DNA from: Clostridiales bacterium
GTDB lineage: Bacteria > Bacillota > Clostridia > Christensenellales > UBA1242
Assembly: GCA_918285425.1 (NCBI GenBank)
Contig: CAKJZE010000049.1
Span: forward strand, 1-49,060
DNA length: 49,060 nt
Direction of reading: 5' to 3'
A model generated the notes under the pieces. That model was not told the DNA's origin, searched no databases, and saw nothing but the letters and a program-made list of their open reading frames with translations. A program made the position numbers and the translations under genes. Positions 2,377-49,060 of the stretch are shown here, piece after piece (position 1 is the first letter of the stretch; each line of letters opens with the position of its first letter).

Positions 2377-2451
2377 TGGTAGTCCCAAGGAGAGTCGAAC
2401 TCCTCACTTCGCCGTGAAAGGGCGATGTCTTAACCGATTGACCATGGGACC
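2377..2451 (-). tRNA. tRNA-Glu (anticodon UUC), CCA encoded
   Basis: Minus strand reads GGTCCCATGGTCAATCGGTTAAGACATCGCCCTTTCACGGCGAAGTGAGGAGTTCGACTCTCCTTGGGACTACCA. It folds as a cloverleaf with anticodon loop CTTTCAC and a GTTCGA T-loop, and closely resembles Bacillus tRNA-Glu. Confidence 0.9.
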
Positions 2452-2463
2452 ATATTAAATTGT

Positions 2464-2540
2464 TGGTAGCGGCAGTGGGATTTGAACCTACGACCTACTG
2501 GGTATGAACCAGGCGCTCTAGCCAACTGAGCTATGCCGCC
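2464..2540 (-). tRNA. tRNA-Met, elongator type (anticodon CAU), CCA encoded. A lysidine-modified tRNA-Ile2 cannot be excluded by eye.
   Basis: Minus strand reads GGCGGCATAGCTCAGTTGGCTAGAGCGCCTGGTTCATACCCAGTAGGTCGTAGGTTCAAATCCCACTGCCGCTACCA. The G1-C72 pair argues against an initiator tRNA. Confidence 0.85.
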
Positions 2541-2564
2541 ACGCCGTTTTGTCAACGCTTTCAC

Positions 2565-2593
2565 ATTTTATTATAAAATCTTGATTTTGTCAA
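2565..2593 (-). promoter_or_regulatory. Sigma-A-type promoter for the tRNA pair
   Basis: Minus strand has TTGACA (2593-2588), a 17-nt spacer and TAAAAT (2570-2565), about 25 nt upstream of tRNA-Met. Confidence 0.45.
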
Positions 2594-2671
2594 CATTTTT
2601 ATTAAATATTTTTATCTTTTTACAACAAAATAAAATCAAGTACCTGATTGGTACTTGAATTATTAACTTAT

Positions 2672-4459
2672 TTACTCCAGCTCTTCATCATTTTTATTTA
2701 TTATTTCTTCAGAATTTTGGTTGTTATCCTGCTCTTCATTATTGCCCACATCAAGAATTTCAATATCACCAGTTATGATTTTTTCTTTTCTTTCTTTTGT
2801 GAAACCATCTGATGAAAACAATTTGTAAAAATCATCAAGGCTGCCAGTTATTTCAGCATTTTGTCTTTCTGCTCTGAAAGTGATTTTTATATCTTTATAA
2901 TTTTTCACTTCACCCTGCTTCAGACCGGGTACATAATAATACACACCAAAGCCATTTTCAACATCTTGATGACACATTGCCTCTCTTAAACAAAGCAAAA
3001 CATAAGCTTTTGTTGCTCCAGTATCAGCAATTGGTTTATTATTGAGTTTAAATTTACTTAAATCAAAAGCACTGAAGAAATTGGTTTGTTCTCGGTTTAG
3101 TTCATTAAAACAAGTTGCTGCAAGTAAATCGTCATAAAACGCACTGGTAACAAGCTGATTAAATCCCATCAGGCACACAATGTTAAAGGCAACTTCAAAA
3201 GAAGACCCTGAAAGTTGATCTATATTCATAGTATCCATATTAAGTGATTCAAGTTTAATCATGTTGAAAAATCTTTTACTTTCAACATCAAATTCATGTT
3301 TATTTTTATAAAACTCTTTGATTAAATTATCAGCCTGCAGCTTCAATATCTTTAGAATTTGTGGCGATCTGGCATTTTTATTAATTTTTTCCTGCACAAC
3401 ATCAAAGTCAACTGACAACGCTTTAAGCTTTTTATCAATTTCGAGCATTTTGTTCTTATAATCTTCAATCTCTTTTTCAGTCAAAATTGCAGACTCTTCC
3501 CTTTTTTCAAGCTCTTTTGAAATCAGTTTTTGCAAAGTATAGATAATTGCTGGATTACTTGTTCCTTTTGAAATTTCAAAGTATACTTGATTGTTCGCAC
3601 AAAGTGAAGTTATTATGTCAGCTTTTTGATCAAAACTTAAATTAAAGAAATCTGGAATATACTGAATTCTTGCCTTTATTAAGTTATTTATTCTGTAGAA
3701 ATTTTCCCTGGACACAGAATCAAAAAAATCCTTTAAAGATGATAAAGCTTTATCAACATCTTGATTATTTAAAATATAATTTGCTTGATTTGCCAAATTG
3801 CTTTTTAAATATTCTTTTGCCTTATCATAATCAAACAGAGCATATTTATTTGCAAAAGTTTCAGCAAATCCACGGAGCCACATTTTACTTACTATAAGAT
3901 TATCGTTTGGTCTTCTGAATAACAGATGATTTCCCGCAATATAAGGGGTGTTATGTGCAAAAACATTTCTTACCATAGCTAACTTTTCATTGTCTGAATA
4001 GTAGCCATCATACTTACTTTCAAAGGAAGGATCTTCAGTTGACAACACCAAAACGTCTTGCATTCTTGCGCTGCCTATATGTTGACCAGTTTTGATTAAA
4101 AACTGTCCATCTTGTATTGTTTCAAGTTTAATTACGTGGCTGTAACCTGAAGATGGAACTGTTATATTATATTTTTCCAACAGCTCTTTTTTCTTATCTT
4201 TGCTTAAAACCGACAAAGCAAATTCTCCAGCAAAAATGTCCTGAAGTTCACTTGTACTAAAATCATATTTTTCATAGTTGTTAAGACATAAAAATCCGGA
4301 AGTATAGACCCAAAAATCTTTAAGATGATTTGAGTTAAAATCCGACAAATCAACATCTGTATCAAAGCCGTCATCACTGACCGCATGATAAAGTCTTTCC
4401 AAAAGTTTTATTTGATTTTTTGCAAGTTTACGTCTTTCTTCTGAAACATTAATTTTCAT
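2672..4459 (-). CDS. Hypothetical 595-aa cytoplasmic protein with two HEPN-like Rx4H motifs (putative RNase)
   Basis: Long ORF. I place the start at ATG 4459 (MKINVSEERR) because aaggaaa lies 7 nt upstream; the ORF-track start at 4513 has no RBS. Motifs are VRNVFAHN (nt 3953-3970) and LREAMCHQ (nt 2969-2986), with a coiled-coil-like middle. The CDS is confident; the product call is inference. Confidence 0.5.
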   Translation of the reverse strand: MKINVSEERRKLAKNQIKLLERLYHAVSDDGFDTDVDLSDFNSNHLKDFWVYTSGFLCLNNYEKYDFSTSELQDIFAGEFALSVLSKDKKKELLEKYNITVPSSGYSHVIKLETIQDGQFLIKTGQHIGSARMQDVLVLSTEDPSFESKYDGYYSDNEKLAMVRNVFAHNTPYIAGNHLLFRRPNDNLIVSKMWLRGFAETFANKYALFDYDKAKEYLKSNLANQANYILNNQDVDKALSSLKDFFDSVSRENFYRINNLIKARIQYIPDFFNLSFDQKADIITSLCANNQVYFEISKGTSNPAIIYTLQKLISKELEKREESAILTEKEIEDYKNKMLEIDKKLKALSVDFDVVQEKINKNARSPQILKILKLQADNLIKEFYKNKHEFDVESKRFFNMIKLESLNMDTMNIDQLSGSSFEVAFNIVCLMGFNQLVTSAFYDDLLAATCFNELNREQTNFFSAFDLSKFKLNNKPIADTGATKAYVLLCLREAMCHQDVENGFGVYYYVPGLKQGEVKNYKDIKITFRAERQNAEITGSLDDFYKLFSSDGFTKERKEKIITGDIEILDVGNNEEQDNNQNSEEIINKNDEELE

Positions 4460-4528
4460 AATACATTTCCTTGCAAAAATTATATAATAAAAAAACTGCT
4501 CCGTCAAGAGCAATTTTTATAAGAAAAT

Positions 4529-4813
4529 TTAGTCAATCACGAAAACTTCTTCGTCATCTTTTATCATTCCAAGCTGTTCACGAGCTTGCTGTTCAATATA
4601 GGCATCACTACTTCTTGTCTTGATTCCCTCTTCCAAAGCAATTTGAGTTATGCTTAAATCTTCAATTTGTTTATCAAGACTTGCGTTTTTTGCAGAAAGT
4701 TGACCAGCATGAATATATAGTCCAAAAGAAAGCACAATTAAAGCAAACAGAAAAATTGTTGCAAGAACTGTAATAAGTTTTACCATTTTTGCTGCTTTTG
4801 ATCCAGTCATCAC
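4529..4813 (-). CDS. divIC: Septum formation initiator family protein (DivIC/FtsB-like)
   Basis: 94 aa with a single N-terminal TM, then a coiled coil, then SDAYIEQQAREQLGMIKDDEEVF, typical of the DivIC/FtsB family. It lies downstream of yabP-yabQ as in Bacillus and overlaps the yabQ stop by 4 nt. Confidence 0.75.
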   Translation of the reverse strand: MMTGSKAAKMVKLITVLATIFLFALIVLSFGLYIHAGQLSAKNASLDKQIEDLSITQIALEEGIKTRSSDAYIEQQAREQLGMIKDDEEVFVID

Positions 4814-5154
4814 CCTATATCCTTCCTTTGTTTAGTCAATTTTATAATTTTATTATAAATATTTTTTACAGGTTTTGCAATCAAATTTTCAATAAATATT
4901 TTTTGAAATATTATTCCAATTAAAAAGCATACGGCAAAATACAGCTTAATACTTGCGTAATAATACTTTAAACAAATGACATAAAATATCAGACTTGAAA
5001 ACAATACTGACAGAAAATCCACAATAAAAACAACAAAAAAATTATAGCGCGTCAATTTGACAATTAAATAAAGTATTGTTGTCAATATCCCTGCAAAAAT
5101 TCCCGCCGCCAAAAATAAAATAAGACTATAAAAAGCCCCGCCACTTGCAAGCAT
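4810..5154 (-). CDS. yabQ: Small polytopic membrane protein, YabQ-like (spore cortex biosynthesis)
   Basis: 114 aa and highly hydrophobic. Its position between yabP and divIC matches the Bacillus yabP-yabQ-divIC order. Confidence 0.55.
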   Translation of the reverse strand: MLASGGAFYSLILFLAAGIFAGILTTILYLIVKLTRYNFFVVFIVDFLSVLFSSLIFYVICLKYYYASIKLYFAVCFLIGIIFQKIFIENLIAKPVKNIYNKIIKLTKQRKDIG

Positions 5155-5156
5155 AG

Positions 5157-5429
5157 TTATTTAAAAAGCCTTTTGAAAAAATTTTTGCCCTGCGACTTTA
5201 CTTGATACTTTACGCTTTCCACTTCCCCATCTACGACAAGCAAACCCTCCTCCAAAACCAACTTGCCAACCCGTAAGTCTTTGCCCACACCATAGATCAG
5301 TGAATCTTTAATGCGAATTATAACACATTTGTCAGTTGCACTGAGCACTTCCAAAACACCAGTAACCATCATACGTTTACGTCTTTCAATTGTGATGGTA
5401 TGTGATGATTCAGCCAACTCTTTTTCCAT
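5157..5429 (-). CDS. yabP: Sporulation protein YabP
   Basis: 90 aa. HTITIERRKRMMVTGVLEVLSATDKCVIIRIKD...LVVDGEVESVKY resembles the YabP family signature. Confidence 0.8.
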   Translation of the reverse strand: MEKELAESSHTITIERRKRMMVTGVLEVLSATDKCVIIRIKDSLIYGVGKDLRVGKLVLEEGLLVVDGEVESVKYQVKSQGKNFFKRLFK

Positions 5430-7788: not shown

Positions 7789-8601
7789 ATGAAAAAGTTT
7801 ACATCATTTTTAAGTATAATTTTATCAATTTTTTTATTCACTCCACACATTTCAGATATTGCTTTGGCACAAAATAACAAACCTATGCTGACAATTATAA
7901 TTGATGATTTTGGTGGCTTTGACCAAAGTGGAGTTGACACCATGCTTTCTGTGGACGCTCCACTTACATGCGCAGTGATGCCAAATCTGGAAAACTCGCT
8001 TGCAAACAGTAAAGCAATTGAAGAAAGTGGCAAAGAAGTTATACTTCACATGCCAATGCAAGCACATGTTCACCTTCCTGAAAGTTGGTATGGCCCAACT
8101 TACATCTGCTCTGGTGACAGTAAAGAAATTGTCTTTCAAAAGATAACAAGTGCACTTGAAAGCGTGCCAAATGCCAAAGGATTTAATATACATATTGGCT
8201 CTGGCGTGTGTCAAAATCCCACAACAATGGGATATGTTTATGACTTTGCAATAAACAACAATTTGCCATTTGTTGACAGCAGGACACACATAAATACCAT
8301 TGCACAAACAGTGGCAAGTCAAAAAAATGTGATCTATCTTGGCCGGGACGAATTTTTAGAGCCAAGTGGAAATAAAAGTTACGAAAGTGTAAAACATCAC
8401 ATAATGGTCGGGGCAAATATCGCCAAAGAAAGAGGACATGCAATCATCATAGGTCACGTAGGGGCTCATGGTGGTGAAAACACAGCAAAGGCGATTGCTT
8501 CATCAATTGAAGAAATAAAGAGTATGGGTATAGAAATTGTACCATTAAGCAAACTTTATGAAAACCTAAATTCCACATTTGTTAACACAGAAAATGAATA
8601 A
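7789..8601 (+). CDS. Divergent polysaccharide deacetylase family protein (YibQ-like), secreted
   Basis: 270 aa with a signal peptide (MKKFTSFLSIILSIFLF). MLTIIIDDFGG...LTCAVMPN...GKEVILHMPMQ matches the PF04748-type pattern. Confidence 0.7.
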   Translation: MKKFTSFLSIILSIFLFTPHISDIALAQNNKPMLTIIIDDFGGFDQSGVDTMLSVDAPLTCAVMPNLENSLANSKAIEESGKEVILHMPMQAHVHLPESWYGPTYICSGDSKEIVFQKITSALESVPNAKGFNIHIGSGVCQNPTTMGYVYDFAINNNLPFVDSRTHINTIAQTVASQKNVIYLGRDEFLEPSGNKSYESVKHHIMVGANIAKERGHAIIIGHVGAHGGENTAKAIASSIEEIKSMGIEIVPLSKLYENLNSTFVNTENE

Positions 8602-8635: not shown

Positions 8636-9649
8636 TTAAGATTTTTCTTTTTGATCTGGTGCATTATTTTTCATGTTGTTAAGCAATTTTTCACACTCTG
8701 GTATAAATTCTTTATAAGAGCCTTTTGGCCTAAAGTCAGTGTTATATCCAAATTTTCCATTTGCAATTTGCATAAATCCATCTTGAGTCAACACCACATT
8801 TTGTACGGCATTCCCCCACCATTTCTCCCAAGCCAAGATTTCTGCAGTAGGCTCTACCAAATCTTTTGCTGGAGGGTTGACTTTAATATTAAACATTTTA
8901 CCTGCCTGTTGAATTAAGTATTGTAATTGATAATTTTTCATCAAGACTTGATTTTCAAACACAGGGTTTTCTTCTTGAGTATATTGATCATAAATATTTA
9001 AAATTTCTTTTCTTGTAGCAACAATAAGCAAATACATCTCAAGTTCACTTTTTGTCTGCAAGCTTTCCACAAATTCTGGTTTTAAACCTGCTGGATAATT
9101 TCCAACTTTTAACTTCTTGCCTATCTTTTTTATATCATATGAAGGGTGATAAATTTTAACGTCATCAACATTTTCCTTCATCACATACAATATAAATGCA
9201 AGATCATATAAACTTCTTTCAGGATCATAAGTATTCCACATAATTTCATGCATGCCATAACTGCTGTAATACACTTCAAATATAGGGGCAGTAAATATAA
9301 CCTCTCTATCGCCTGATTTTAATTTTGGAGATTTTGAATTTTTATCAACATTCCACATGATTGGATTAAGAGTTTTTACAAGTAACTTTTCTTCATCACG
9401 TCCCGGCGCATTTGTACGCAAGATCATGCTTCTTTGAAAGTTAAAAATGATTTCAACATAAATATTATTTAAATATCCACTGATGCGTCTTTGATCATCA
9501 CTTTCAACAGGCTCTACCTCTATGTCAATGTTATAAATAAACCCATTTTTCTCAAACTGATCGTAAAGATAATCAACAAGGTCATACTCATTGTCAATAT
9601 ATAAATGTCTGTTTATAATGTTGTTTTTTGTTTCCATATTTACACCCAT
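8636..9649 (-). CDS. Hypothetical protein (alternative start ATG at 9637, METKNN)
   Basis: 337-aa ORF with ordinary amino-acid composition. No domain was recognised by eye. Confidence 0.5.
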   Translation of the reverse strand: MGVNMETKNNIINRHLYIDNEYDLVDYLYDQFEKNGFIYNIDIEVEPVESDDQRRISGYLNNIYVEIIFNFQRSMILRTNAPGRDEEKLLVKTLNPIMWNVDKNSKSPKLKSGDREVIFTAPIFEVYYSSYGMHEIMWNTYDPERSLYDLAFILYVMKENVDDVKIYHPSYDIKKIGKKLKVGNYPAGLKPEFVESLQTKSELEMYLLIVATRKEILNIYDQYTQEENPVFENQVLMKNYQLQYLIQQAGKMFNIKVNPPAKDLVEPTAEILAWEKWWGNAVQNVVLTQDGFMQIANGKFGYNTDFRPKGSYKEFIPECEKLLNNMKNNAPDQKEKS

Positions 9650-9706
9650 TACTTACATTATACAACAATAAGTTATATATTTCAAGACCCAATTTAAAAA
9701 GCAGGT

Positions 9707-10561
9707 TTAATCCTGCTTTTCCTCTAAAACAACTTTATCTTTATACGCATATATCTGTATTGTTTTAAGTCCATCATAGACGATTATTGCTTCATATTTC
9801 CCGTTCGAATTCAATGTGACTGCTGCTTCCAGATCTTTTTTAAAATCATCACCATCTAAATGAAAAAATGTTGCAATAATTTCATCTGACTTTTGAGCTA
9901 TTGTTACATTAACGTTACAATCAAACAGACCAAGTTTATCATCAAGTTCATAAATCTCGTTTTGCATAATTTCCCTTAATTTGACAACACAGTTAAAAGT
10001 AAAATTAAAATCATTATATGTTACAGTTGCAACGGCGGCAGTATTGTATTCACCAGACCACGCAATTTCCACAGTTGCATCTTTAAGTTTAACAACTTTC
10101 TCTTCACCATTGCTGTAAAGCACAGTGAAGTCCACATCATCAAGACAGTCATTTTCCCCATCAAATACAACAATGTTTGTTTGCTTTACTGTTGCAGACT
10201 TAATATAAACCGCCTTCACTTCATATTGAAAAGTGAAATTTTGACTTAAGTATGATATAACAAAACTTTTTGTTCCAACAGAAGAGGTGTCAAGCACATT
10301 TCTGTAAACATCACCCAGCTTAAAAGTTTGTGAAGATTGGTCAGAAAAGTTAATTGTAACATCATAAAGCTGAAGATTTATTGCTTCACCAACAAAAAAC
10401 TCATCAGTGTAAAACGCATCTTCAATAACAATACTTTGCACTTGTTTTTGTGTTGAATTGTTATTTGCATTTTCTTTATCTGATCCTGCACATGAGCAAC
10501 ATGTTATAATGACAAACGCAAAAAGAAAAATGTATAATCCCTTCTTAATAAACTTTTTCAT
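9707..10561 (-). CDS. Putative lipoprotein, beta-rich
   Basis: Start placed at ATG 10561 (MKKFIKKGLYIFLFAFVIITCCSCAGS), which gives a signal peptide with cysteines at the cleavage region. The rest is beta-strand-like repeat sequence. Confidence 0.6.
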   Translation of the reverse strand: MKKFIKKGLYIFLFAFVIITCCSCAGSDKENANNNSTQKQVQSIVIEDAFYTDEFFVGEAINLQLYDVTINFSDQSSQTFKLGDVYRNVLDTSSVGTKSFVISYLSQNFTFQYEVKAVYIKSATVKQTNIVVFDGENDCLDDVDFTVLYSNGEEKVVKLKDATVEIAWSGEYNTAAVATVTYNDFNFTFNCVVKLREIMQNEIYELDDKLGLFDCNVNVTIAQKSDEIIATFFHLDGDDFKKDLEAAVTLNSNGKYEAIIVYDGLKTIQIYAYKDKVVLEEKQD

Positions 10562-33890: not shown

Positions 33891-35084
33891 ATGGAAAAAT
33901 ATTCATCAATCAGATTAGAAATAACCTCAAAGTGTAACTTAAAATGTTCTTATTGTCATAATGCAAAATATGCAAATAATGCAGAAGACCTTTCTACTGA
34001 AGAAATCTTAAAACTTATAAGAAATCTTAAGAGCTATTATCCAATAAATAAAATTTTACTAACCGGAGGTGAGCCTTTGTGCCAACCAGATTTAGTAAAA
34101 ATTGTTCAAGAAATAACAAACTTAAAAATTAAGCCAGACATGGTTTCAAATGGTACATTGTTAAATAAAAATTTTATAAAAGAATTAGATAATGCTGGTT
34201 TAAAACGTATAAGGTTAAGTATAGACGAAATCGGCAATAAAAGTAAGATTAGGGGGACTTCGTCGCCTAAAGACCTTTGGCTTAAAGTGAAAGAAATACA
34301 AGAAAATTCAAATATTGAAGTTTGTATTCATTCTGTATGTTCTCCAAATAATGTAAATATTTTAGATAAATTATATAAACAAGTTGTTGCTTCTGGGGCT
34401 AAAAGGTGGAGAGTGTTTGACATAGGCTATCAAGGCGGATTTGCAAACGAATACAAAAATTACAATTTAGTTAGATATTATAAAACCTATATTAAAAAAG
34501 CAAGAGCTATACTAAAATCATATATTAAAAATGAAGTATATAAAAAGCTTGACATAGAAATAAGCAATATATTTAGAACAGACTTTTTAAAATTATCGCA
34601 AGAAGATATTGATACACTTAATTTACAAAAAGAATTAGAAATAAAACTTAAAAGTAATCCTTGTGATTATGTAAAAGGTCACCAACTAACTATAAGAAGT
34701 GATGGAAAAGCGTCATTATGTCAATACTACAGGAATTGTATTTTTGACTATAAAAAGAATAGTTTTGACATAGCAAAAACTGTAAAAAATAAACAACCTT
34801 GTACGGAAAATGATATGTTCGTCAAAAATGTACCATATTGTAAAAATTGCAAATACATATTAATGTGCAGTTGTGGCTGCAGATCAAGGGCCGAATTTTT
34901 TACACATAATATTTATGAAGCAGATCCTATTGCATGTTATTTATCAAAAGAAGTTGATAAAAAAATCATGCCATTACTGCCATCAAACATAAAAAATTAT
35001 TATAATGCAATAAAAATCCAATCAGGAACGGAACCAAAATACAATTATAAAGATGTAAAAACTTTTTTAAGGTCACAAAAATGA
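33891..35084 (+). CDS. Radical SAM enzyme with C-terminal SPASM domain
   Basis: 397 aa with CNLKCSYC (CX3CX2C) at residues 14-21 and LLTGGEPL. The SPASM signature is CDYVKGHQLTIRSDGKASLC (CX13GX4C) plus CKNCKYILMCSCGC (CX2CX5CX3C). Confidence 0.85.
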   Translation: MEKYSSIRLEITSKCNLKCSYCHNAKYANNAEDLSTEEILKLIRNLKSYYPINKILLTGGEPLCQPDLVKIVQEITNLKIKPDMVSNGTLLNKNFIKELDNAGLKRIRLSIDEIGNKSKIRGTSSPKDLWLKVKEIQENSNIEVCIHSVCSPNNVNILDKLYKQVVASGAKRWRVFDIGYQGGFANEYKNYNLVRYYKTYIKKARAILKSYIKNEVYKKLDIEISNIFRTDFLKLSQEDIDTLNLQKELEIKLKSNPCDYVKGHQLTIRSDGKASLCQYYRNCIFDYKKNSFDIAKTVKNKQPCTENDMFVKNVPYCKNCKYILMCSCGCRSRAEFFTHNIYEADPIACYLSKEVDKKIMPLLPSNIKNYYNAIKIQSGTEPKYNYKDVKTFLRSQK

Positions 35085-35833
35085 ATAATATTGGATGTAA
35101 ATTAATAATAGATGATTTTGAAAACCCTTCCTATGATATCAACCTTCCTTCACACATAGAATTAAAAGTAAACAAATTTTTATTAAATGATTATAACCTA
35201 AAAAAAATTATTCAGTTTTTGTCTGAAAATAATATTAAATTTTCTTTTCACTTGCCTAAATCATTGTTATATGATAAATCAGACTTTAATACAACAATGA
35301 AATTTATAAAATTTTTATCAAAAATAAAATATACTAATACGATACATTTAATATTTCACTTTAAAGACACACCATTGATTAAAGAGAAAAAATTAAATAA
35401 ACTCTTTTCGTTGGCACCAGAAAATTGTATTTTTCTTTTAGAAAATATTGTTACCCATTATGATGACCAATTTATTAATGATTTACAAAATTTCTTTAAT
35501 TTATATGAAAATTACAACATAAAATTTTGCCTTGATATTGGACATTTATTGTTTTCAAAAAAATTTTTCAATATTTCAGATAAATCAATAAACATATTAT
35601 TAAAAAATGTAAAATCAAAAATATTTGAATTTCATATTCATAATTTTAATGAATCTAAAGATCACCTTATGTTCCATAGTTATGATCAAATATTTGAATT
35701 TTTTAACTTAATATATTTACTAAATTCAAATTGTCCTATTATACTTGAATCAAAACATGAGAACTTCAATCAATTAGAACAAGAATTAAAAAATATAGAA
35801 AAATGGAGGAAAAAATATGAGACCTTTTTATGA
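35081..35833 (+). CDS. Xylose-isomerase-like TIM-barrel protein (sugar phosphate isomerase/epimerase, AP-endonuclease-2 fold family)
   Basis: 250 aa in an ATGA overlap with the rSAM stop. Spaced motifs FSFHLP, FLLENIV, FCLDIGHLLF, FEFHIHNF and IILESKH resemble the metal-ligand pattern of the family. Confidence 0.55.
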   Translation: MNNIGCKLIIDDFENPSYDINLPSHIELKVNKFLLNDYNLKKIIQFLSENNIKFSFHLPKSLLYDKSDFNTTMKFIKFLSKIKYTNTIHLIFHFKDTPLIKEKKLNKLFSLAPENCIFLLENIVTHYDDQFINDLQNFFNLYENYNIKFCLDIGHLLFSKKFFNISDKSINILLKNVKSKIFEFHIHNFNESKDHLMFHSYDQIFEFFNLIYLLNSNCPIILESKHENFNQLEQELKNIEKWRKKYETFL

Positions 35834-36554
35834 TAATGGTAGTTTCGTAGAAATATATGAAACAAACCACTCCGCATTTTCATATAAAAGATCAGAAGTT
35901 ATAAAAAATTTTTTAGAAAACAAAAAAATTAAAGTAAAAAACTGCCTGGATTTAGCGTGTGGAACGGGTCTGTTTCTTAACAACTTTTGTAAAACATGCG
36001 ATTTAACAGGAATGGGACTTGATTTTTCTGAAAAAATGATAAATTTTGCAAATAAAAATGTTAACAACAAAAATTTAACATTTTTACTTGGAGATATGAC
36101 AGACTTTAGCATAAATAAAAAATTTGATCTAATTACGTGTAATTATAATTCAATTAATGAAATTTTAGATGATCAAAAACTAAACAATATGTTTATATGT
36201 TGCTATAATCATTTAAACAATGGGGCTTTTTTCATGTTCGATTTTAACACACCAAGAAAGTATATAGAAGGAAAAAAATATAATTACTACAAAGAAAAAG
36301 ACTTTAACATGGTTGCTGAAAGAATTAAAGAAAAGAATAATCTAGTATTATATAACTACCACATTTACAAAAAAACACATAACAACACTTACATAATTGA
36401 AAACACACAAATGTATGAAAAATTTTTTGAGCCAAAATATATTAAAAAGTTGCTCAAAAATAATGGTTTTAAAAAAATACGCTTTTTAGATGAAAATTTT
36501 AAAAGAACCAATGTAAAAAAATTAAAAAGAATTTTTGTGGTTTGCAAAAAATAA
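35817..36554 (+). CDS. Class I SAM-dependent methyltransferase
   Basis: 245 aa with motif I CLDLACGTGLF, then GLDFS. A GGAGGA RBS precedes the ATG, and the gene overlaps the upstream gene by 17 nt. Confidence 0.75.
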   Translation: MRPFYDNGSFVEIYETNHSAFSYKRSEVIKNFLENKKIKVKNCLDLACGTGLFLNNFCKTCDLTGMGLDFSEKMINFANKNVNNKNLTFLLGDMTDFSINKKFDLITCNYNSINEILDDQKLNNMFICCYNHLNNGAFFMFDFNTPRKYIEGKKYNYYKEKDFNMVAERIKEKNNLVLYNYHIYKKTHNNTYIIENTQMYEKFFEPKYIKKLLKNNGFKKIRFLDENFKRTNVKKLKRIFVVCKK

Positions 36555-36614
36555 TCAACATATTCATACTTAAACATATAATAAAAGCAAATACATATAA
36601 TTTAAAAATAATAA

Positions 36615-36646
36615 TAGGATAAGACAAAAATCTTATCCTATTTTTT
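36615..36646. terminator. Terminator closing the rSAM cassette (may also terminate the convergent tRNA-Arg)
   Basis: taggataaga-caaaaa-tcttatccta, a perfect 10-bp stem, followed by tttttt. Confidence 0.6.
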
Positions 36647-36652
36647 ACTCTT

Positions 36653-36729
<77 letters not shown>

Positions 36730-43284: not shown

Positions 43285-46200
43285 CTAGTGATCCCATACA
43301 GCATAGAGTGTTAAGTTGCTGTTGACTTTCACAGTATTTATCGCCGACGTACTGTTACTTGCTTGAGACGTTGACCAACCTTTAGTCTTATATGTGTAAG
43401 ACTTAGAGAATATAAACTTATATGTAACTTTTATAGTCGCTGAATATCCAGAAAGATTCATTTGTGTTCCAGCGGCGACATATTGAGTTGCAGGTGCTGT
43501 AGGTGCACTTGTTATCGTTCCGTTGTTTGTCCACCAAGATGGTTTATACCAAGAAACATCAAACTGAACTTTATAATATGTTGTAACGCTGTAATTTGCG
43601 CTTATTGTCAGGTTCTTTGATGGCATTGTTGTTGTGCTATTGTTCCAACCGGTATAAGTGTAAATCTTATATGATCCATCACTATTATTAATTTTTACTG
43701 GAGAAGTTGAAACACTTGGATAACTTATGCTTGCACCAACAAGAACTCTTGTTGAAGACAACTGTCTTGTGATTTGGCCACTTGACGAATTGATATCATA
43801 GAATGTCAAAGTATAATAAGTTAAATATGTTGCCTGTATTGTCAAATCACTTGTAGGCATTGTTGTTACACTTGAATCCCAACCATTAAATACATAATGT
43901 CCGGTCTCACCACCAACTGTTATATCATATTCAGTGTGTGCAAGTGTTGGATATGTTACTGTATCACCTTCAAGCATTGTTGTTGAAACAATAGAGTTAT
44001 TTATTTGTGCAGTTAAAGTGTTGATGTCATAGATATTTAAAGTGTAGTAACCTCTTCTTGAAACTTCATTATAGTTCGCATAGATTGTTACATCGTGGTT
44101 TGGCATTTCTGTCAAATACTCACTGTATCCAACAAAGTTAAGAATTACATGATATTCTCTTGAGCCAACGAATTCATCATATTCAACAACATCTGGAAGC
44201 TCTGGCAATACAACTTCTTCACCATTTGTCTTTGTTTGTGAGACCAGAACTGTTCCGTCATAGTTATAAACTGTCAATGTACTGATATAAACACGTCTTG
44301 AAACATCTTCCTGATACTGTGCAGTTGCAACAATATCACTTGCAAAATTGTATTCAGTAATTGAATTATTATTTTGATCTTTATAACCAATAAAGTCATA
44401 ATAGTATCTTACATTTCCATCTTCCACAACTTGTGTTTCATGTGTTGGCAATACATATACTTCATGATCATTAAGTTCTTTCAAGGTTTGATTTATGCCA
44501 AGCATATCATTAACTATTGAGATTGTATGATATTCTCTTACATACTCATCAAATACAGCGGTAAATTGAACATCTTGTGTCAATGAATAAGCAGTTCCGC
44601 CTGCGTAAACAGCCGATCCATCACTCCAACCTACAAAGGTGTAAACAATATTCATAACACCATTATCAAATGTTGTTTTAGTAATGTTTGGCAAAGTGAT
44701 GTTTGTACCTTCAAGTTGTTTATTATTTGCGACTGCTGTTCCGCCATTGCTGTTAAATGTTGCAGTTCTGTAATATACAACAACTTCTTGCCACAATCCA
44801 TTTATTGTTTTATTGTCGTCAAGGTTGATTGTGACATTTTTACCTATGTTGTTTCCGGCAAGTGCCCAACCAAGGAATGTGTATGTATTTCTTGTTACAC
44901 CATCATCAACAATATAGTCAGCAAGAGCTGAAACAGGTATTTGTGTTCCATCAAGATTTCTTGTAACATAACTGTCTGTACCATTATTGTTATTTACAAC
45001 AAGATCATAGTAGTTAGTTATATTCTCATCAAACACAGCCACAAAGTGAACATCTTGTGTCAAAGTATAAGCAGTACCGCCTGTATAAATGTTTGATCCA
45101 TCACTCCAGCCAGTAAAGGTGTAAATTATTCTTACAATGTTATCATCATATGTCGCTTTTATAATTGTTGGAAGTGTTATCACTGTTCCTTCAAGTTGTT
45201 TATTATTTTGTACTGACGTTCCACCATTGCTGTCAAATGTTGCAGTGCGATAGTAAACAACAACTTCGTTCCATAGTCCAACGATTGTCTTGTTGTCATC
45301 AAGCTCAATTGTAACATTCTTTCCAATATTCACACCACCAAGTGCCCAACCAAGGAATGTGTATGTATTTCTTGTTACACCATCATCAACAACATAGTCA
45401 GAAAGAGCTGAAATATTAACATTTGTGTACTGCAGCTGTTTATATGTTTGATTGTTTGTTCCGTTATTGTTTATAACTGTCAAAGTTTTATAATATTGCA
45501 CTGAAGCAATTTCCCAATGTGCTGTAAGTGTCATATTATTTGCTGGATAGTATGTAAGTGTGCACTTATTTCCATCAGCATCAAACCAGCCAAGGAATGT
45601 ATATGTTGTTCTTGTAACACCATTGTCCACAACCTTTGTTGGTGTTGGAAGAGTCATATTTGAGCCAAGATTTCCACTCAAACTTGAAGCGCCTGTTCCG
45701 CCGTCTTTATTCAATGTGATTGTGATTGTCTTTTTGTTTGTTTGACTGAATGAGCCACTGCCCTCTTTTGCATACTCTCCATATGGATTGTAAGCATAGT
45801 TGTTGATAAAGTTATTTGCAGAAGTGATGTCAACCGCTTGACCAATGTTCTTTAAATAAAGTTTATTACTGCTGTCTGTTTTAAGTGACAATAAGTTGTC
45901 AAGCATCTTCATATCAATATCCATAGCATACAAATAATCTTTATAGCCGGTTGACGCATTATTTGTTGTTGTAAGCGTGATGCTGAGTTCACCTATATCA
46001 TCATTATGAGCAATCTTTTGCAAGTTAAGTTTGATATAGTGGCTGTTGCCTGACTTAGAGTAGCTTAAAATGATGTTTGAATAATCGTCATTTCCGTTAT
46101 AATTCATTGAAACATCAATTGCTTCGTCAATCTTATTCTGAATCATTGACGTAAATCCAAGAAGCCAATTCAAATAGTATTTGATATTATCGATAAGATA

Positions 46201-49060
46201 GCCCGGAGTTATGCGTGTGATTCGTTCATATGATTTATAATCTGCCATAGTTATGCCTAAAAGTTTATACTTATAAGCATCGTCATAGGTTTTAAGATAC
46301 ATCTCGCCATCTTTGTAATAGATTGAAATTGTTCTGTATCTCATTTGAGTAAGGGTTCCGCCTTTCTCATTAGTATTTGCATCATTTACTTCAACAATCA
46401 TTGGGTAATTTGAAAGCGTCAATGATATTATTGGTTTTTTGTTTTCGTCAAGTTTAACACGGAAATCAACATCAATCTTTGCCGCATCTATGCTTGAAAC
46501 TGAAAGCATAACCTTTCCTTGAACAAGATAGTCATTAAGTTGAGATGTGTTAAGGAATGCTTTAATTAAATCCACACTATTTGAAAGATCAATATATGAT
46601 GAAGTTGCACTATTTGAAATTCTTCTTTCAAACACGATCGATGCATTTATATAACTGTTTGTTTCTGCATCTGTGTAAACATTATTAACTTCAAGTTTTG
46701 TTATTCTTCCATTTGCTGTTGAAAGTTTAATTTCGAAATCTTTACCCGTTGTGCTGTTAAATAATGCACTGTCAATAAGAATCGTAAATACACCATCTTT
46801 TAATGTTATGCTCTTTAAATAGTTAAGCATTGTGAATGGATTTCCAAGGTCAATTGCAGGAAGTGATGATTGCAAGTTGCTTGTATCTATTTCAGTTGTA
46901 TCGGCAACCTCACCGATTAAGCTTGCCAGGTTTGGATCAAGACCCATAACTTCAAGTGCCATTGAAAGTACTTGTGACAAACTGTTTCTTGCAATTTTTA
47001 TTCTCATTCCATAGAAATCAATAAAGAATATGTCATCTTGGAAACCAATATTTAAATATCTATCAGACTTACTATTACTTTCATAGAAGTTAACTTTTGC
47101 AAAGAACTCAAGCGGATCTTCTTGAATTGTATTCATCACAGCTGAAATTGCATCAGTGATAACTTTATATGAAACATAATCTCCACTGTTTATATTATCA
47201 AGTATAATATCGTCAAAATCAACAACTGTAATATCAAGATAGTATTGATAATTGTTATCCTCACTACTCTTGTTATAGCCAAGTGTTACCCTGTTAACCA
47301 AATCATCATAGAAGCAACCAATATCAATGCCATATGACAATTTTGCTTGAAGTTCACCTTCACTAAACTCTGCACCCTTTATAATATTGAGATCAAAATT
47401 AGCAAGCATGTTTAGTATCTCATCAATACTGAAATTTAAACTTGTCTCACCTTTAATCACTCTTCTTATGTGGTTAAGATCAATATTTTCTTCCATTCCA
47501 AGCACATTTTTAATTTCAGTTAAAATATCAAAACCAAACTCGTCTTTAATCCAAGCAAACAAAGCTTCATGCTCTTCAAACGTAGCTTTTATCTGCAATC
47601 TGTTGTCCGCTCTGTTGCTTACTCCACCAAGATCCAAATAGAAGACGCCATCAACATAATAGATATTAATATTCAAGCCATTAAATGTGGTTGTCATAAA
47701 TGCAGTAAGCTTCTTGTCTGCAATCTTTAATCCATAGTTTGCAACTATATGATTGATATTTCCATTAAACTTAAAGTCAAATGCAACTTCACCACTAATT
47801 GATCCGTTTTTCACAGTTTCATAGGTTCTTTCTGCAAGATCAGCCAATGACTTGATATCAAGATATGGCACTTTATCTTCTTCGTCCATAAATCCTATAA
47901 TTGATGCAGTCTGATCTATACTTATTGTTAAATCTATATATTTGTCACCAATTTTCAACTTGTCAATCTTTACATAGGTCAAATTGCCATCTGCAATATT
48001 TACGATAATGTCAAGTTTAATTTCAAGACCAATACAAGTAAGATCGACTGAAAGGACAATTTTTTCACTGTCTATCTTAACATTTTCCAAAATTTGACTT
48101 AAAGTATTGTCTATATTAATGTTTATGTCATCTTTAAGATCTTCAAAAGTTTGGTCAAGTCCATCACCAAAGTCATAACCGGCAAATGCCTCTGAAATTG
48201 CTTGTCCACCAAGAATATTAAGTATTCTGTTTATCAGATCATCATATTCATCAGTATCCATATCTGCAAGACCAAGAATCTTGTGCATTGTGTAAAGAAC
48301 TTTATCAGAATCAATTCTTATCTTAAATCCATTGATGTTGGCAAATATGTCAGAATTTTCCAACTTGCCTTGTAAATTAAATATGTTTTGTTTATATCTG
48401 ACTATAAAGTCTGCCAATGCAAGCAATGTATCTTGAGTATGATTTTTATTTATAACGCCAGTAAATCCAAAATCACTTACATATTCATTATTAACTAAAT
48501 CATAAAGATCAAATGTAATATCTGCATTTATGATGTTTGCATTTTCAAGTGCTTTAATATTATCAATAAAGTTAAATACATCAAGGTACTTATCTTCGTC
48601 AACTGTAACAGTTTCAACATCACTTCTGTCAAGATTAATCTTCACTGATCCTTTTACATCGACGTCAAGCTCAAGATTATTAATTTCAAGTGCAACAATA
48701 TTTGAATCGTCAAGCGTAATTGTTATTTGTAAATCTTCTTCAATATCAAGATAGTTTTTATTTATTATTAATTTTATTAAATTTGAATTTATGCTTATAA
48801 CTTTTATTGCATTAATGTCTTCTTCAGTGAATACAGCAATTAAATTTTTAACTGTTCCAATCAGCTTCATTGACAACAAATTGTTTAATATTGCACTTGT
48901 GTCAACACTATCAAATGATACATTATTTGAAATTAATGCAATAATTTTTTCAATATTTTCTTTTTCTGCTTTTACGTATATGTCTTGGAATTTAATGTAT
49001 GCCTCATCATTATAATAAGATAACGCAAGATCAATGTTGTTTCCTTTATAATTTACAAGA
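43285..49060 (-). CDS. Giant (>1924 aa) protein, 5'-partial, with ten C-terminal InlB-type B-repeats (Listeria-Bacteroides repeat)
   Basis: The ORF track starts it at TTG 48879. I translated 48880-49059 in the same frame and found no stop codon, so the gene continues beyond the window. The C-terminal 800 aa contain ten ~80-aa units with the Y-T-F-x-G-W hallmark. Confidence 0.8.
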   Translation of the reverse strand, partial: LVNYKGNNIDLALSYYNDEAYIKFQDIYVKAEKENIEKIIALISNNVSFDSVDTSAILNNLLSMKLIGTVKNLIAVFTEEDINAIKVISINSNLIKLIINKNYLDIEEDLQITITLDDSNIVALEINNLELDVDVKGSVKINLDRSDVETVTVDEDKYLDVFNFIDNIKALENANIINADITFDLYDLVNNEYVSDFGFTGVINKNHTQDTLLALADFIVRYKQNIFNLQGKLENSDIFANINGFKIRIDSDKVLYTMHKILGLADMDTDEYDDLINRILNILGGQAISEAFAGYDFGDGLDQTFEDLKDDININIDNTLSQILENVKIDSEKIVLSVDLTCIGLEIKLDIIVNIADGNLTYVKIDKLKIGDKYIDLTISIDQTASIIGFMDEEDKVPYLDIKSLADLAERTYETVKNGSISGEVAFDFKFNGNINHIVANYGLKIADKKLTAFMTTTFNGLNINIYYVDGVFYLDLGGVSNRADNRLQIKATFEEHEALFAWIKDEFGFDILTEIKNVLGMEENIDLNHIRRVIKGETSLNFSIDEILNMLANFDLNIIKGAEFSEGELQAKLSYGIDIGCFYDDLVNRVTLGYNKSSEDNNYQYYLDITVVDFDDIILDNINSGDYVSYKVITDAISAVMNTIQEDPLEFFAKVNFYESNSKSDRYLNIGFQDDIFFIDFYGMRIKIARNSLSQVLSMALEVMGLDPNLASLIGEVADTTEIDTSNLQSSLPAIDLGNPFTMLNYLKSITLKDGVFTILIDSALFNSTTGKDFEIKLSTANGRITKLEVNNVYTDAETNSYINASIVFERRISNSATSSYIDLSNSVDLIKAFLNTSQLNDYLVQGKVMLSVSSIDAAKIDVDFRVKLDENKKPIISLTLSNYPMIVEVNDANTNEKGGTLTQMRYRTISIYYKDGEMYLKTYDDAYKYKLLGITMADYKSYERITRITPGYLIDNIKYYLNWLLGFTSMIQNKIDEAIDVSMNYNGNDDYSNIILSYSKSGNSHYIKLNLQKIAHNDDIGELSITLTTTNNASTGYKDYLYAMDIDMKMLDNLLSLKTDSSNKLYLKNIGQAVDITSANNFINNYAYNPYGEYAKEGSGSFSQTNKKTITITLNKDGGTGASSLSGNLGSNMTLPTPTKVVDNGVTRTTYTFLGWFDADGNKCTLTYYPANNMTLTAHWEIASVQYYKTLTVINNNGTNNQTYKQLQYTNVNISALSDYVVDDGVTRNTYTFLGWALGGVNIGKNVTIELDDNKTIVGLWNEVVVYYRTATFDSNGGTSVQNNKQLEGTVITLPTIIKATYDDNIVRIIYTFTGWSDGSNIYTGGTAYTLTQDVHFVAVFDENITNYYDLVVNNNNGTDSYVTRNLDGTQIPVSALADYIVDDGVTRNTYTFLGWALAGNNIGKNVTINLDDNKTINGLWQEVVVYYRTATFNSNGGTAVANNKQLEGTNITLPNITKTTFDNGVMNIVYTFVGWSDGSAVYAGGTAYSLTQDVQFTAVFDEYVREYHTISIVNDMLGINQTLKELNDHEVYVLPTHETQVVEDGNVRYYYDFIGYKDQNNNSITEYNFASDIVATAQYQEDVSRRVYISTLTVYNYDGTVLVSQTKTNGEEVVLPELPDVVEYDEFVGSREYHVILNFVGYSEYLTEMPNHDVTIYANYNEVSRRGYYTLNIYDINTLTAQINNSIVSTTMLEGDTVTYPTLAHTEYDITVGGETGHYVFNGWDSSVTTMPTSDLTIQATYLTYYTLTFYDINSSSGQITRQLSSTRVLVGASISYPSVSTSPVKINNSDGSYKIYTYTGWNNSTTTMPSKNLTISANYSVTTYYKVQFDVSWYKPSWWTNNGTITSAPTAPATQYVAAGTQMNLSGYSATIKVTYKFIFSKSYTYKTKGWSTSQASNSTSAINTVKVNSNLTLYAVWDH
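43288..45735 (-). repeat. Array of ten ~80-aa B-repeat units within the giant gene
   Basis: Recurrent YTFLGW / YTFTGW / YTFVGW / DFIGY / NFVGY / VFNGW / YTYTGW / TKGW motifs, each preceded by (Y)Y-x-hydrophobic beta-strand starts. Confidence 0.7.
44530..45489. repeat. Tandem duplication, 2 x 480 bp (two B-repeat pairs)
   Basis: Sequence lines 480 nt apart align base for base over long stretches. For example, 44861-44912 is identical to 45341-45392, and 44701-44760 aligns with 45181-45240. Confidence 0.85.

Follow-up and report, generated by a model that had tools for sequence, protein, structure and literature searches.

Can a single polypeptide carry both halves of a HEPN ribonuclease (RNase) active site with none of the machinery of a CRISPR system around it? 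Outside CRISPR type VI it is rare for one chain to unite two HEPN domains, and the question is raised here by a gene for a 595-aa protein in a 49,060-nucleotide (nt) stretch of DNA from a Clostridiales bacterium (GenBank assembly GCA_918285425.1, contig CAKJZE010000049.1, positions 1 to 49,060; hereafter the window, meaning the whole stretch analysed). The gene, defined by its open reading frame (ORF) and translation, occupies 2672..4459 on the minus strand, with an ATG start and a stop codon at 2672-2674. A preliminary description, made from the letters alone, had noticed two Rx4H motifs in the protein and proposed that it is a dual-HEPN RNase. We now favour, with moderate confidence, a stand-alone, single-chain RNase of dual-HEPN type, divergent and so far undescribed, with RNA cleavage as its candidate activity. 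For this protein we infer a HEPN fold, a pseudo-dimer geometry, RNase activity, a mode of regulation and a biological role, each of which is taken up below where the evidence that bears on it is given.

The two motifs and the modules that carry them

Both motifs are present in the one chain, exactly where they had been placed: translation of the minus strand gives motif 1 as R164-N165-V-F-A-H169 (RNVFAH, aa 164-169; 3953..3970) and motif 2 as R492-E-A-M-C-H497 (REAMCH, aa 492-497; 2969..2986). Their co-occurrence in one sequence is only mildly unusual, with shuffles giving a mean of 0.24 such motifs and a probability of 0.023 for two or more. Across an alignment of 47 homologues that reaches down to 23% identity, R164, H169, R492 and H497 are each conserved in 47/47 members and N165 in 46/47. 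The four motif R/H residues are therefore among just 11 invariant columns (G78, L139, T141, R164, H169, W194, R196, G197, R492, H497 and F553), and it follows that the motifs are under strong selection and did not arise by chance; the conservation check proposed in the preliminary description is thereby answered for both. That description had also ranked the first motif as strong and the second as weaker. The ranking stands for the window protein, which has E493, but not for the family at large: position 493 is N in 26/47 homologues (E in 8, H in 8, Q in 3), so that motif 2 reads RNxxxH in most members, and it is the C-terminal module that gives the better HEPN signal at the profile level. Furthermore, hhalign pairs the N-terminal motif module in register with the C-terminal one (89%, E 2e-6, over the motif helix and the next strand), whereas controls against the middle region stay below 1%. 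This alignment points to an internal duplication, judged from sequence, as the likely origin of the two modules.

AlphaFold2, run with the family alignment, models the full-length protein with a predicted local distance difference test (pLDDT) score of 85 and a predicted template modelling (pTM) score of 0.85, and AlphaFold models the isolated C-terminal module (aa 405-571) with a pLDDT of 92 and a pTM of 0.87. The predicted secondary structure and conservation delimit an N-terminal motif module, the candidate HEPN-1 (aa 1-206; 3842..4459, this and all following segments on the minus strand), in which helices 5-25 and 43-57 (the latter with D48) are followed by an insert, a helix at 156-169 that ends in RNVFAH, three short strands and a helix at 192-206 bearing SKMWLRG with the invariant W194, R196 and G197. 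The insert, at 69-147 between helices 2 and 3, is predicted to be beta-rich at 79-147, and segment 4010..4225 of this module shows a proportion of nonsynonymous differences (pN) of 0.36-0.41 versus 0.15-0.26 in the conserved modules. Beyond this module the model places a linker domain of seven helices (aa 211-319; 3503..3829) and then an antiparallel coiled-coil hairpin that is K/E-rich and fast-evolving (aa 328-400; 3260..3478). The K/E-rich segment pointed out earlier is thus real: it is predicted to form long antiparallel helices at 328-361 and 366-400, and the region draws coiled-coil matches only.

The C-terminal motif module, the candidate HEPN-2 (aa 413-556; 2792..3223), is delimited by the isolated-domain model and by recurrent sub-threshold HEPN matches, and it is predicted to run from a helix at 420-438 (E422, N426, N434) through FYED at 441-444 and several short helices to a helix at 481-496 that ends in REAMCH, three strands and a helix at 541-548. 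The chain closes with an acidic tail (aa 572-595; 2675..2746) predicted to be disordered (pLDDT <50); in the family as a whole, acidic residues outnumber basic ones over the last 30 positions, 7.4 to 3.8 on average. A maximum Kyte-Doolittle score of 1.51 (19-residue window) and a charged N-terminus fit the earlier statement that the protein has neither a transmembrane helix nor a signal peptide.

How far do these modules resemble HEPN? The superfamily is defined by an Rx4-6H motif that closes helix-3 and in which the R is usually followed by a polar residue; inserts typically separate helices 2 and 3, and the conserved acidic residue, if present, sits in helix-2 (PMC3710099). Both motifs have the Rx4-6H form throughout the 47-homologue alignment, and both modules follow the HEPN helix order, their motifs ending helices 156-169 and 481-496 with two helices before each, an agreement that concerns the order of secondary structure and not three-dimensional geometry. 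Both candidates also have an acidic residue in helix-2 (D48 in 36/47; E/D443-D/E444 in 41-44/47). We further searched 22 isolated C-modules and 22 isolated N-modules, with the coiled coil removed, against Pfam. Only HEPN-clan families were matched by more than one C-module: three modules matched HEPN_RiboL-PSP (best E 2.9e-4) and three matched HEPN pEK499_p136 (best E 0.008), and HEPN_MAE_28990, also of this clan, was matched by one; the other 13 families matched were singletons. One C-module alignment to a HEPN-clan profile is collinear over 85 residues (56-141 versus 56-140 of the 152 profile positions), another spans the motif-bearing end of RiboL-PSP, and among the N-modules one matched Abi_2 (E 0.075). 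This HEPN sequence signal surfaced only once the coiled coil had been cut away. In PADLOC, the full-length members gave RTasHEPN in two cases and CARF_HEPN in one (E 0.01-0.03). We consider it likely that the 595-aa protein belongs to HEPN; judged by the models, its fold would be no less than strongly modified with respect to HEPN, each motif being followed by a beta meander.

In the mechanism that we propose, two diverged modules of HEPN-like type, at aa 1-206 and at aa 413-556, which are joined by the helical domain and the coiled-coil hairpin, would each give one R(N)xxxH half-site and, on the model of Cas13 and of HEPN dimers, would pack as an intramolecular pseudo-dimer. R164/H169 and R492/H497 would then form one metal-independent RNA-cleaving site that works without a guide RNA, and the fast-evolving beta insert and coiled-coil hairpin would be likely surfaces for substrate binding or activator sensing. 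Because the gene has no antitoxin or inhibitor, guide RNA or partner gene (see below), control of the activity would have to be intramolecular, residing for example in a conformational switch or in the acidic tail.

Genomic setting and possible roles

What surrounds the gene bears directly on its role. The preliminary description had seen no CRISPR context in the 49 kb, and this holds for repeat arrays across the window and, as regards cas genes, for the sample of window ORFs that was scanned. Neither the window nor any of the 24 homologue loci (L001-L024) has a CRISPR array, and no cas context, antitoxin or partner RNA was found in any of them; the AbiD/F-associated RNA RF03085 likewise had no match in the window at E<=1 and none in the 24 loci. 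The survey of neighbourhoods suggested earlier thus yielded no array and no conserved partner: the context classes have no partner gene in common, and no adjacent antitoxin of the HEPN-MNT or RnlAB type was found in them. A conserved three-gene system, considered from the 577-aa and 106-aa neighbours in the window and the 577-aa and 112-aa neighbours in L002, was rejected, as BLASTP finds no similarity between them and the match in size is coincidental.

The chromosomal gene keeps its place within sub-lineages next to housekeeping genes. Class A (the window, L004/L011 and L009) has the order recD2-yabP-yabQ-divIC-gene-tRNAMet-tRNAGlu. In class B (L005-7, L010, L012, L017-L023) the order is rplI...DUF1540...gene, followed about 100 nt on by a convergent 5S/23S rRNA operon, and it is because the gene adjoins this operon that the contigs of many members end 170-195 nt past the stop codon. 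Class C (L003, L008, L013) reads aldehyde dehydrogenase-gene-folA/thyA, and the remaining loci make up classes D (L001/L002/L015), E (L016, with a convergent tRNA), and F and G (L014 and L024). In three of the seven classes the 3' end of the gene lies about 100-200 nt from a stable-RNA gene, be it a co-directional tRNA-Met/tRNA-Glu pair, the convergent 5S/23S end or a convergent tRNA (L004 11910-12202; L009 8220-8383; L005 9878-9962; L010 6277-7051; L012 7779-8401; L016 7895-7967; contig ends in L021-L023). In the window this neighbour is the tRNA-Glu/tRNA-Met pair at 2377-2540 (minus strand), which lies downstream of the 595-aa gene and has its own 11/12 promoter. The adjacency is above chance by a rough, post hoc estimate (~1e-3) and could reflect a functional link or merely mark the boundaries of synteny blocks.

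We take the gene order in Bacillus subtilis to be yabP-yabQ-divIC-yabR-tRNA-Met-tRNA-Glu, which resembles the window at 2377-5429; on this assumed order, the 595-aa gene presumably occupies the place that in Bacillus belongs to yabR, a gene for an S1-domain RNA-binding protein. The locus of the closest named relative (L004) has an additional 91-aa ORF between divIC and the gene (9648-9923), with no Pfam match, which neither the window nor L009 has.

The window gene is monocistronic, with its own sigma-70-type promoter (TTGACG-17-TATAAT, 11/12 matches; 4479..4507, minus strand) and its own intrinsic terminator (a 9-bp stem and then a T-run; 2636..2658, minus strand) 14 nt past the stop codon, and these two elements take up the flanking intergenic spaces, which measure only 70-130 nt. 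The ribosome-binding site AAGGAAA (4466..4472, minus strand) lies 6 nt before the ATG. A TTG at 4513, 54 nt upstream of the ATG, could extend the ORF by 18 aa; we favour the ATG because homologues begin at its position and because the ribosome-binding site and promoter precede it. In all of the 12 loci checked, a sigma-70-type promoter with 10-12/12 matches stands directly upstream of the gene. The leaders differ between classes: in A and C the leader measures about 20 nt and contains a site of GGAG type, and in B and D the -10 box ends only 6-7 nt before the annotated start, with no ribosome-binding site (seen in the 35 nt upstream of the gene start in L005, at 7966-8000, and in L010, L018, L021, L023 and L002). 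The latter arrangement suggests leaderless mRNAs in classes B and D, the alternative being a start codon further downstream.

A word-indexed search brought up 18 relatives of the protein, and an exhaustive phmmer search of 1.8 billion representatives brought up 54 homologues (E<=1e-3), of which some 40 have full length (557-688 aa). Every source with a named organism is an uncultured 'Clostridia bacterium' metagenome-assembled genome from rumen or gut samples, and the family was not found in JGI metagenomes, IMG/VR, phage genomes or plasmids. Within class A the protein keeps 59-61% identity, versus 94% for RecD2, 84% for DivIC and 78% each for YabP and the deacetylase; within class B it keeps 36-59%, versus 65-87% for L9 and 80-90% for DUF1540. 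Because synonymous divergence (dS) is saturated at 1.7-2.2, nonsynonymous divergence (dN) is usable only as a ratio between genes: dN/dS, at about 0.15, is a rough figure, and its use as a test of positive selection was dropped. At 0.29-0.32, the dN of the gene amounts to about 7 times the RecD2 value and to 2-3 times the values for DivIC and the deacetylase and is similar to that of the weakly constrained YabQ, and the parts that change fastest are the beta insert, the coiled coil and the tail. It follows that the gene is orthologous by position, vertically inherited and under purifying selection, yet fast-evolving. We thus describe it as a monocistronic chromosomal gene, constitutively transcribed to judge by its predicted promoter, and handed down vertically in an uncultured lineage of gut and rumen Clostridia.

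Which role would such an enzyme have? We give a latent effector of stress or anti-phage type a slight preference over RNA housekeeping. As such an effector, the protein would be a latent, Abi-like abortive-infection or stress RNase, fixed at a chromosomal locus and triggered by a phage or stress signal to cut cellular RNA, a role that we put forward tentatively. The HEPN families that it weakly matches (pEK499_p136, MAE_28990, Abi_2 and RTasHEPN) are linked to defence, its taxonomic range is restricted, its rapid evolution centres on the beta insert, the coiled coil and the tail in the way that sensor surfaces would be expected to show, and Cas13 and Cas13an show that a single-chain dual-HEPN protein can stay inactive until triggered. 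The locus itself agrees less well with this role: it has no defence-island context and is stable across genus-level divergence, the family was not found on the phages and plasmids searched, PADLOC returned no significant match, and neither the window nor the homologue loci contain the AbiD/F-associated RNA.

Somewhat doubtful, in our judgement, is a lineage-specific RNase of RNA processing or decay that acts on stable RNAs or ribosomes as a bacterial counterpart of Las1 and other housekeeping HEPN enzymes of eukaryotes, and is neither a defence protein nor a toxin. Such an enzyme would be at home in a synteny as stable as that of class A (the window, L004 and L009) and class B (at least 10 loci), amid contexts that are all housekeeping and contain no defence islands, antitoxin or mobile-element genes, and in a family that was not found in phage genomes, plasmids or IMG/VR. 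The near-consensus vegetative promoter in 12/12 loci, the purifying selection overall (dN/dS ~0.15) and the tRNA or 5S rRNA gene within about 200 nt of the 3' end in 3/7 context classes all accord with it. It is harder to reconcile with a dN that is higher than in RecD2 by a factor of about 7 and than in DivIC or the deacetylase by a factor of 2-3, with an identity of 59-61% where RecD2 keeps 94%, with the restriction of the family to a narrow set of uncultured Clostridia and with the fact that the weakly matched HEPN families come from conflict systems; the RNA-gene adjacency, moreover, was noticed post hoc and may mark synteny-block boundaries. A further idea, improbable as we see it, is that a vertically inherited, constitutively expressed single-chain dual-HEPN RNase has been domesticated in gut Clostridia for the processing or surveillance of stable RNA or ribosomes, which would make it both a Las1-type counterpart and a natural example of the fused two-HEPN, guide-free stage that has been proposed to precede Cas13.

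The HEPN assignment weighed against known systems

Against a dual-HEPN RNase stand a number of results, most of them from profile and structure searches. No Pfam match of a module reaches the gathering score (26-28 bits, versus 14-16 in the alignments inspected), the full-length 595-aa protein has no match in Pfam, NCBIfam, PADLOC or PHROG and none among PDB sequences, the consensus sequences of both module profiles match nothing in Pfam, and neither the family profile nor the module profiles find a HEPN among PDB sequences. Foldseek searches of the PDB and BFVD with the full-length model (pLDDT 85) and the C-module (pLDDT 92) also returned no HEPN, all matches having E >0.1 and TM scores <=0.25, yet the PDB contains many Cas13, Csm6, Csx1, RnlA and HEPN-MNT chains, none of which was picked. 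Compared with a Cas13an alignment, the modules reach only 5-17% by hhalign, the best local matches having 9-17% over 17-31 columns. Finally, a free RNase that is strongly and constitutively transcribed with no inhibitor would be unusual. The preliminary description had itself held that a predicted structure with no HEPN bundle around either motif would speak against its proposal, and the Foldseek outcome comes near to that. Its dual-HEPN reading is thus supported in part, by the invariant motifs, the related modules, the HEPN-like topology and the recurrent HEPN-clan matches, but not by fold comparison or by Pfam scores at gathering level.

What these searches did return was set aside. The whole-chain Foldseek matches in the PDB are coiled-coil and ABC-transporter noise, the whole-protein profile was swamped by the coiled coil against both PDB sequences and Pfam, and the module profiles drew from the PDB plant ribosome-inactivating proteins (out of order, E 0.013), uS9 (E ~0.1-0.25) and TEX49, all insignificant and judged to be chance.

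These negatives could also mean that the two modules have a new alpha+beta fold in which R(N)xxxH is convergent, the R/H pairs binding a phosphate-bearing ligand or nucleic acid or catalysing another reaction. Very confident models with no structural neighbour at all would be explained in this way, as would the three-stranded beta meander that follows each motif helix instead of helix-4 directly, and sub-threshold HEPN profile matches could all be motif-driven. We nevertheless regard a non-HEPN fold as unlikely: HEPN-clan families alone recur among the C-module matches, one of the alignments is collinear over 85 residues, the helix order, the position of the insert and the acidic residue of helix-2 all fit HEPN, and the HEPN domain of Csx1 is a precedent for a beta hairpin right after the motif (PMC3710099).

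With a dual-HEPN RNase retained as the favoured reading, the nearest known proteins in size and layout deserve comparison. The preliminary description had pointed out that the protein is roughly half the size of Cas13; compact dual-HEPN proteins of similar size do exist, namely Cas13an, the compact ancestral type VI effectors of 429-577 aa (PMC12165695). Two HEPN motifs in one polypeptide, as in Cas13, are found in the 595-aa protein at the level of motifs and related modules. As in Cas13an, the two motifs are of RNxxAH type, lie in one chain of similar size and have a helical region between them. Against a profile built from the sequences in Table S3 of PMC12165695, the best local hhalign match of both modules is motif-on-motif with Cas13an HEPN2, whose signature is h..iRN.iAH.g; because this match covers only 17-31 columns at low probability, the similarity may rest on the motif alone. 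In our own reading of the sequences, the Cas13an motif also appears to be followed by a beta hairpin and then a helix. Unlike Cas13an, the 595-aa family has no CRISPR array at any locus examined; its coiled-coil hairpin, its large beta insert and its acidic tail set it apart as well, as does the vertical inheritance of its gene amid housekeeping genes. A search for Cas13 in the PDB gave no match to the protein by sequence or by fold. It is therefore highly improbable, for all the resemblance to Cas13an in HEPN - helical region - HEPN architecture, size and HEPN2 motif, that the protein is a CRISPR-less Cas13 relative using a guide RNA encoded elsewhere in the genome, given that no array lies in the window or in 24 homologue loci, that the flanking 70-130 nt are filled by promoter and terminator, that the hhalign probability is at most 17% and that the covered part of the supplementary tables of PMC12165695 lists no member of the family among its dual-HEPN hits.

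Likeness to other HEPN families extends further along the sequence: with PF18736 (pEK499_p136), PF18735 (RiboL-PSP) and PF18737 (MAE_28990) as many as 85 residues align collinearly, the RNxxxH motif among them. The proteins of these families are single-HEPN and usually lie in restriction-modification, Pgl or toxin-antitoxin-like operons, whereas the 595-aa protein consists of two fused modules and has no partner gene. With Abi2/AbiD/AbiF (PF07751) it shares the RNxxAH form of the motif; it differs from them in having no significant PF07751 match, no RF03085 RNA, no members found on plasmids or phages and two modules per chain. Two HEPN domains per polypeptide are found outside Cas13 in Swt1 and in the MJ1666 type of Csx1, where they form HEPN dyads (PMC3710099), and in DUF4209 dyads, and the 595-aa protein is like these in that respect and unlike them in having no CARF/Rossmann, PIN or other fused domain. 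No sequence relation could be detected with the non-CRISPR dual-HEPN candidates of PMC12165695 (a DUF4209 protein and, from Firmicutes, A0A1Y6ANL6 and G7MBT4), hhalign giving less than 2%. Because such dyads are known (Swt1, Csx1-MJ1666, DUF4209 and the candidates in Table S2 of PMC12165695), the present family is not categorically new; it is unnamed in every library searched.

If the HEPN assignment is right, the family matters in several ways. Cas13 has been proposed to originate from two AbiD/F-like HEPN genes that fused before a guide RNA was acquired (PMC12165695), and a vertically inherited family of about 590 aa, with two RNxxAH-type modules, a helical linker and no array, offers a point of comparison for this model. 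It may also provide a new compact RNase scaffold, and it would be an instance of a HEPN enzyme that a chromosome retains stably with no inhibitor gene. Furthermore, it would show how HEPN domains that have diverged can elude Pfam and fold search alike.

Other features of the window

Just beyond the tRNA pair, at 9-1742 on the plus strand, lies a gene for a 577-aa protein with a C-terminal Mrr_cat restriction-endonuclease domain (E 8e-30; PADLOC matches to ZorD-like and type IV restriction-endonuclease models). Its N-terminal ~450 aa have no match, and the ORF, which starts at position 9, is perhaps cut by the edge of the window. The GC content of the gene (24-28%) is below that of the rest of the window, and the region may be a small acquired defence islet. 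Downstream of this Mrr-type gene, at 1972-2292 on the plus strand, is a Cys-rich ORF of 106 aa with a zinc-ribbon-like CxxC...CxxC pattern, its own terminator at 2300-2322 and no family match.

Another stretch of very low GC content (22-27%), at 33891-36729, encodes a radical-SAM protein, a TIM-barrel protein (PDC-M70B, E 5e-9) and a methyltransferase, and ends at a tRNA-Arg(CCT) at 36653-36729; it is possibly another acquired islet. The radical-SAM protein gives weak matches to pVip/viperin models, which probably reflect generic radical-SAM similarity. At 43285-48879 on the minus strand lies a gene for a putative surface protein of 1864 aa with Listeria-Bacteroides repeat and SHIRT domains, within which a 480-bp tandem duplication at 44538-45428 amounts to 1.9 copies of 78% identity.

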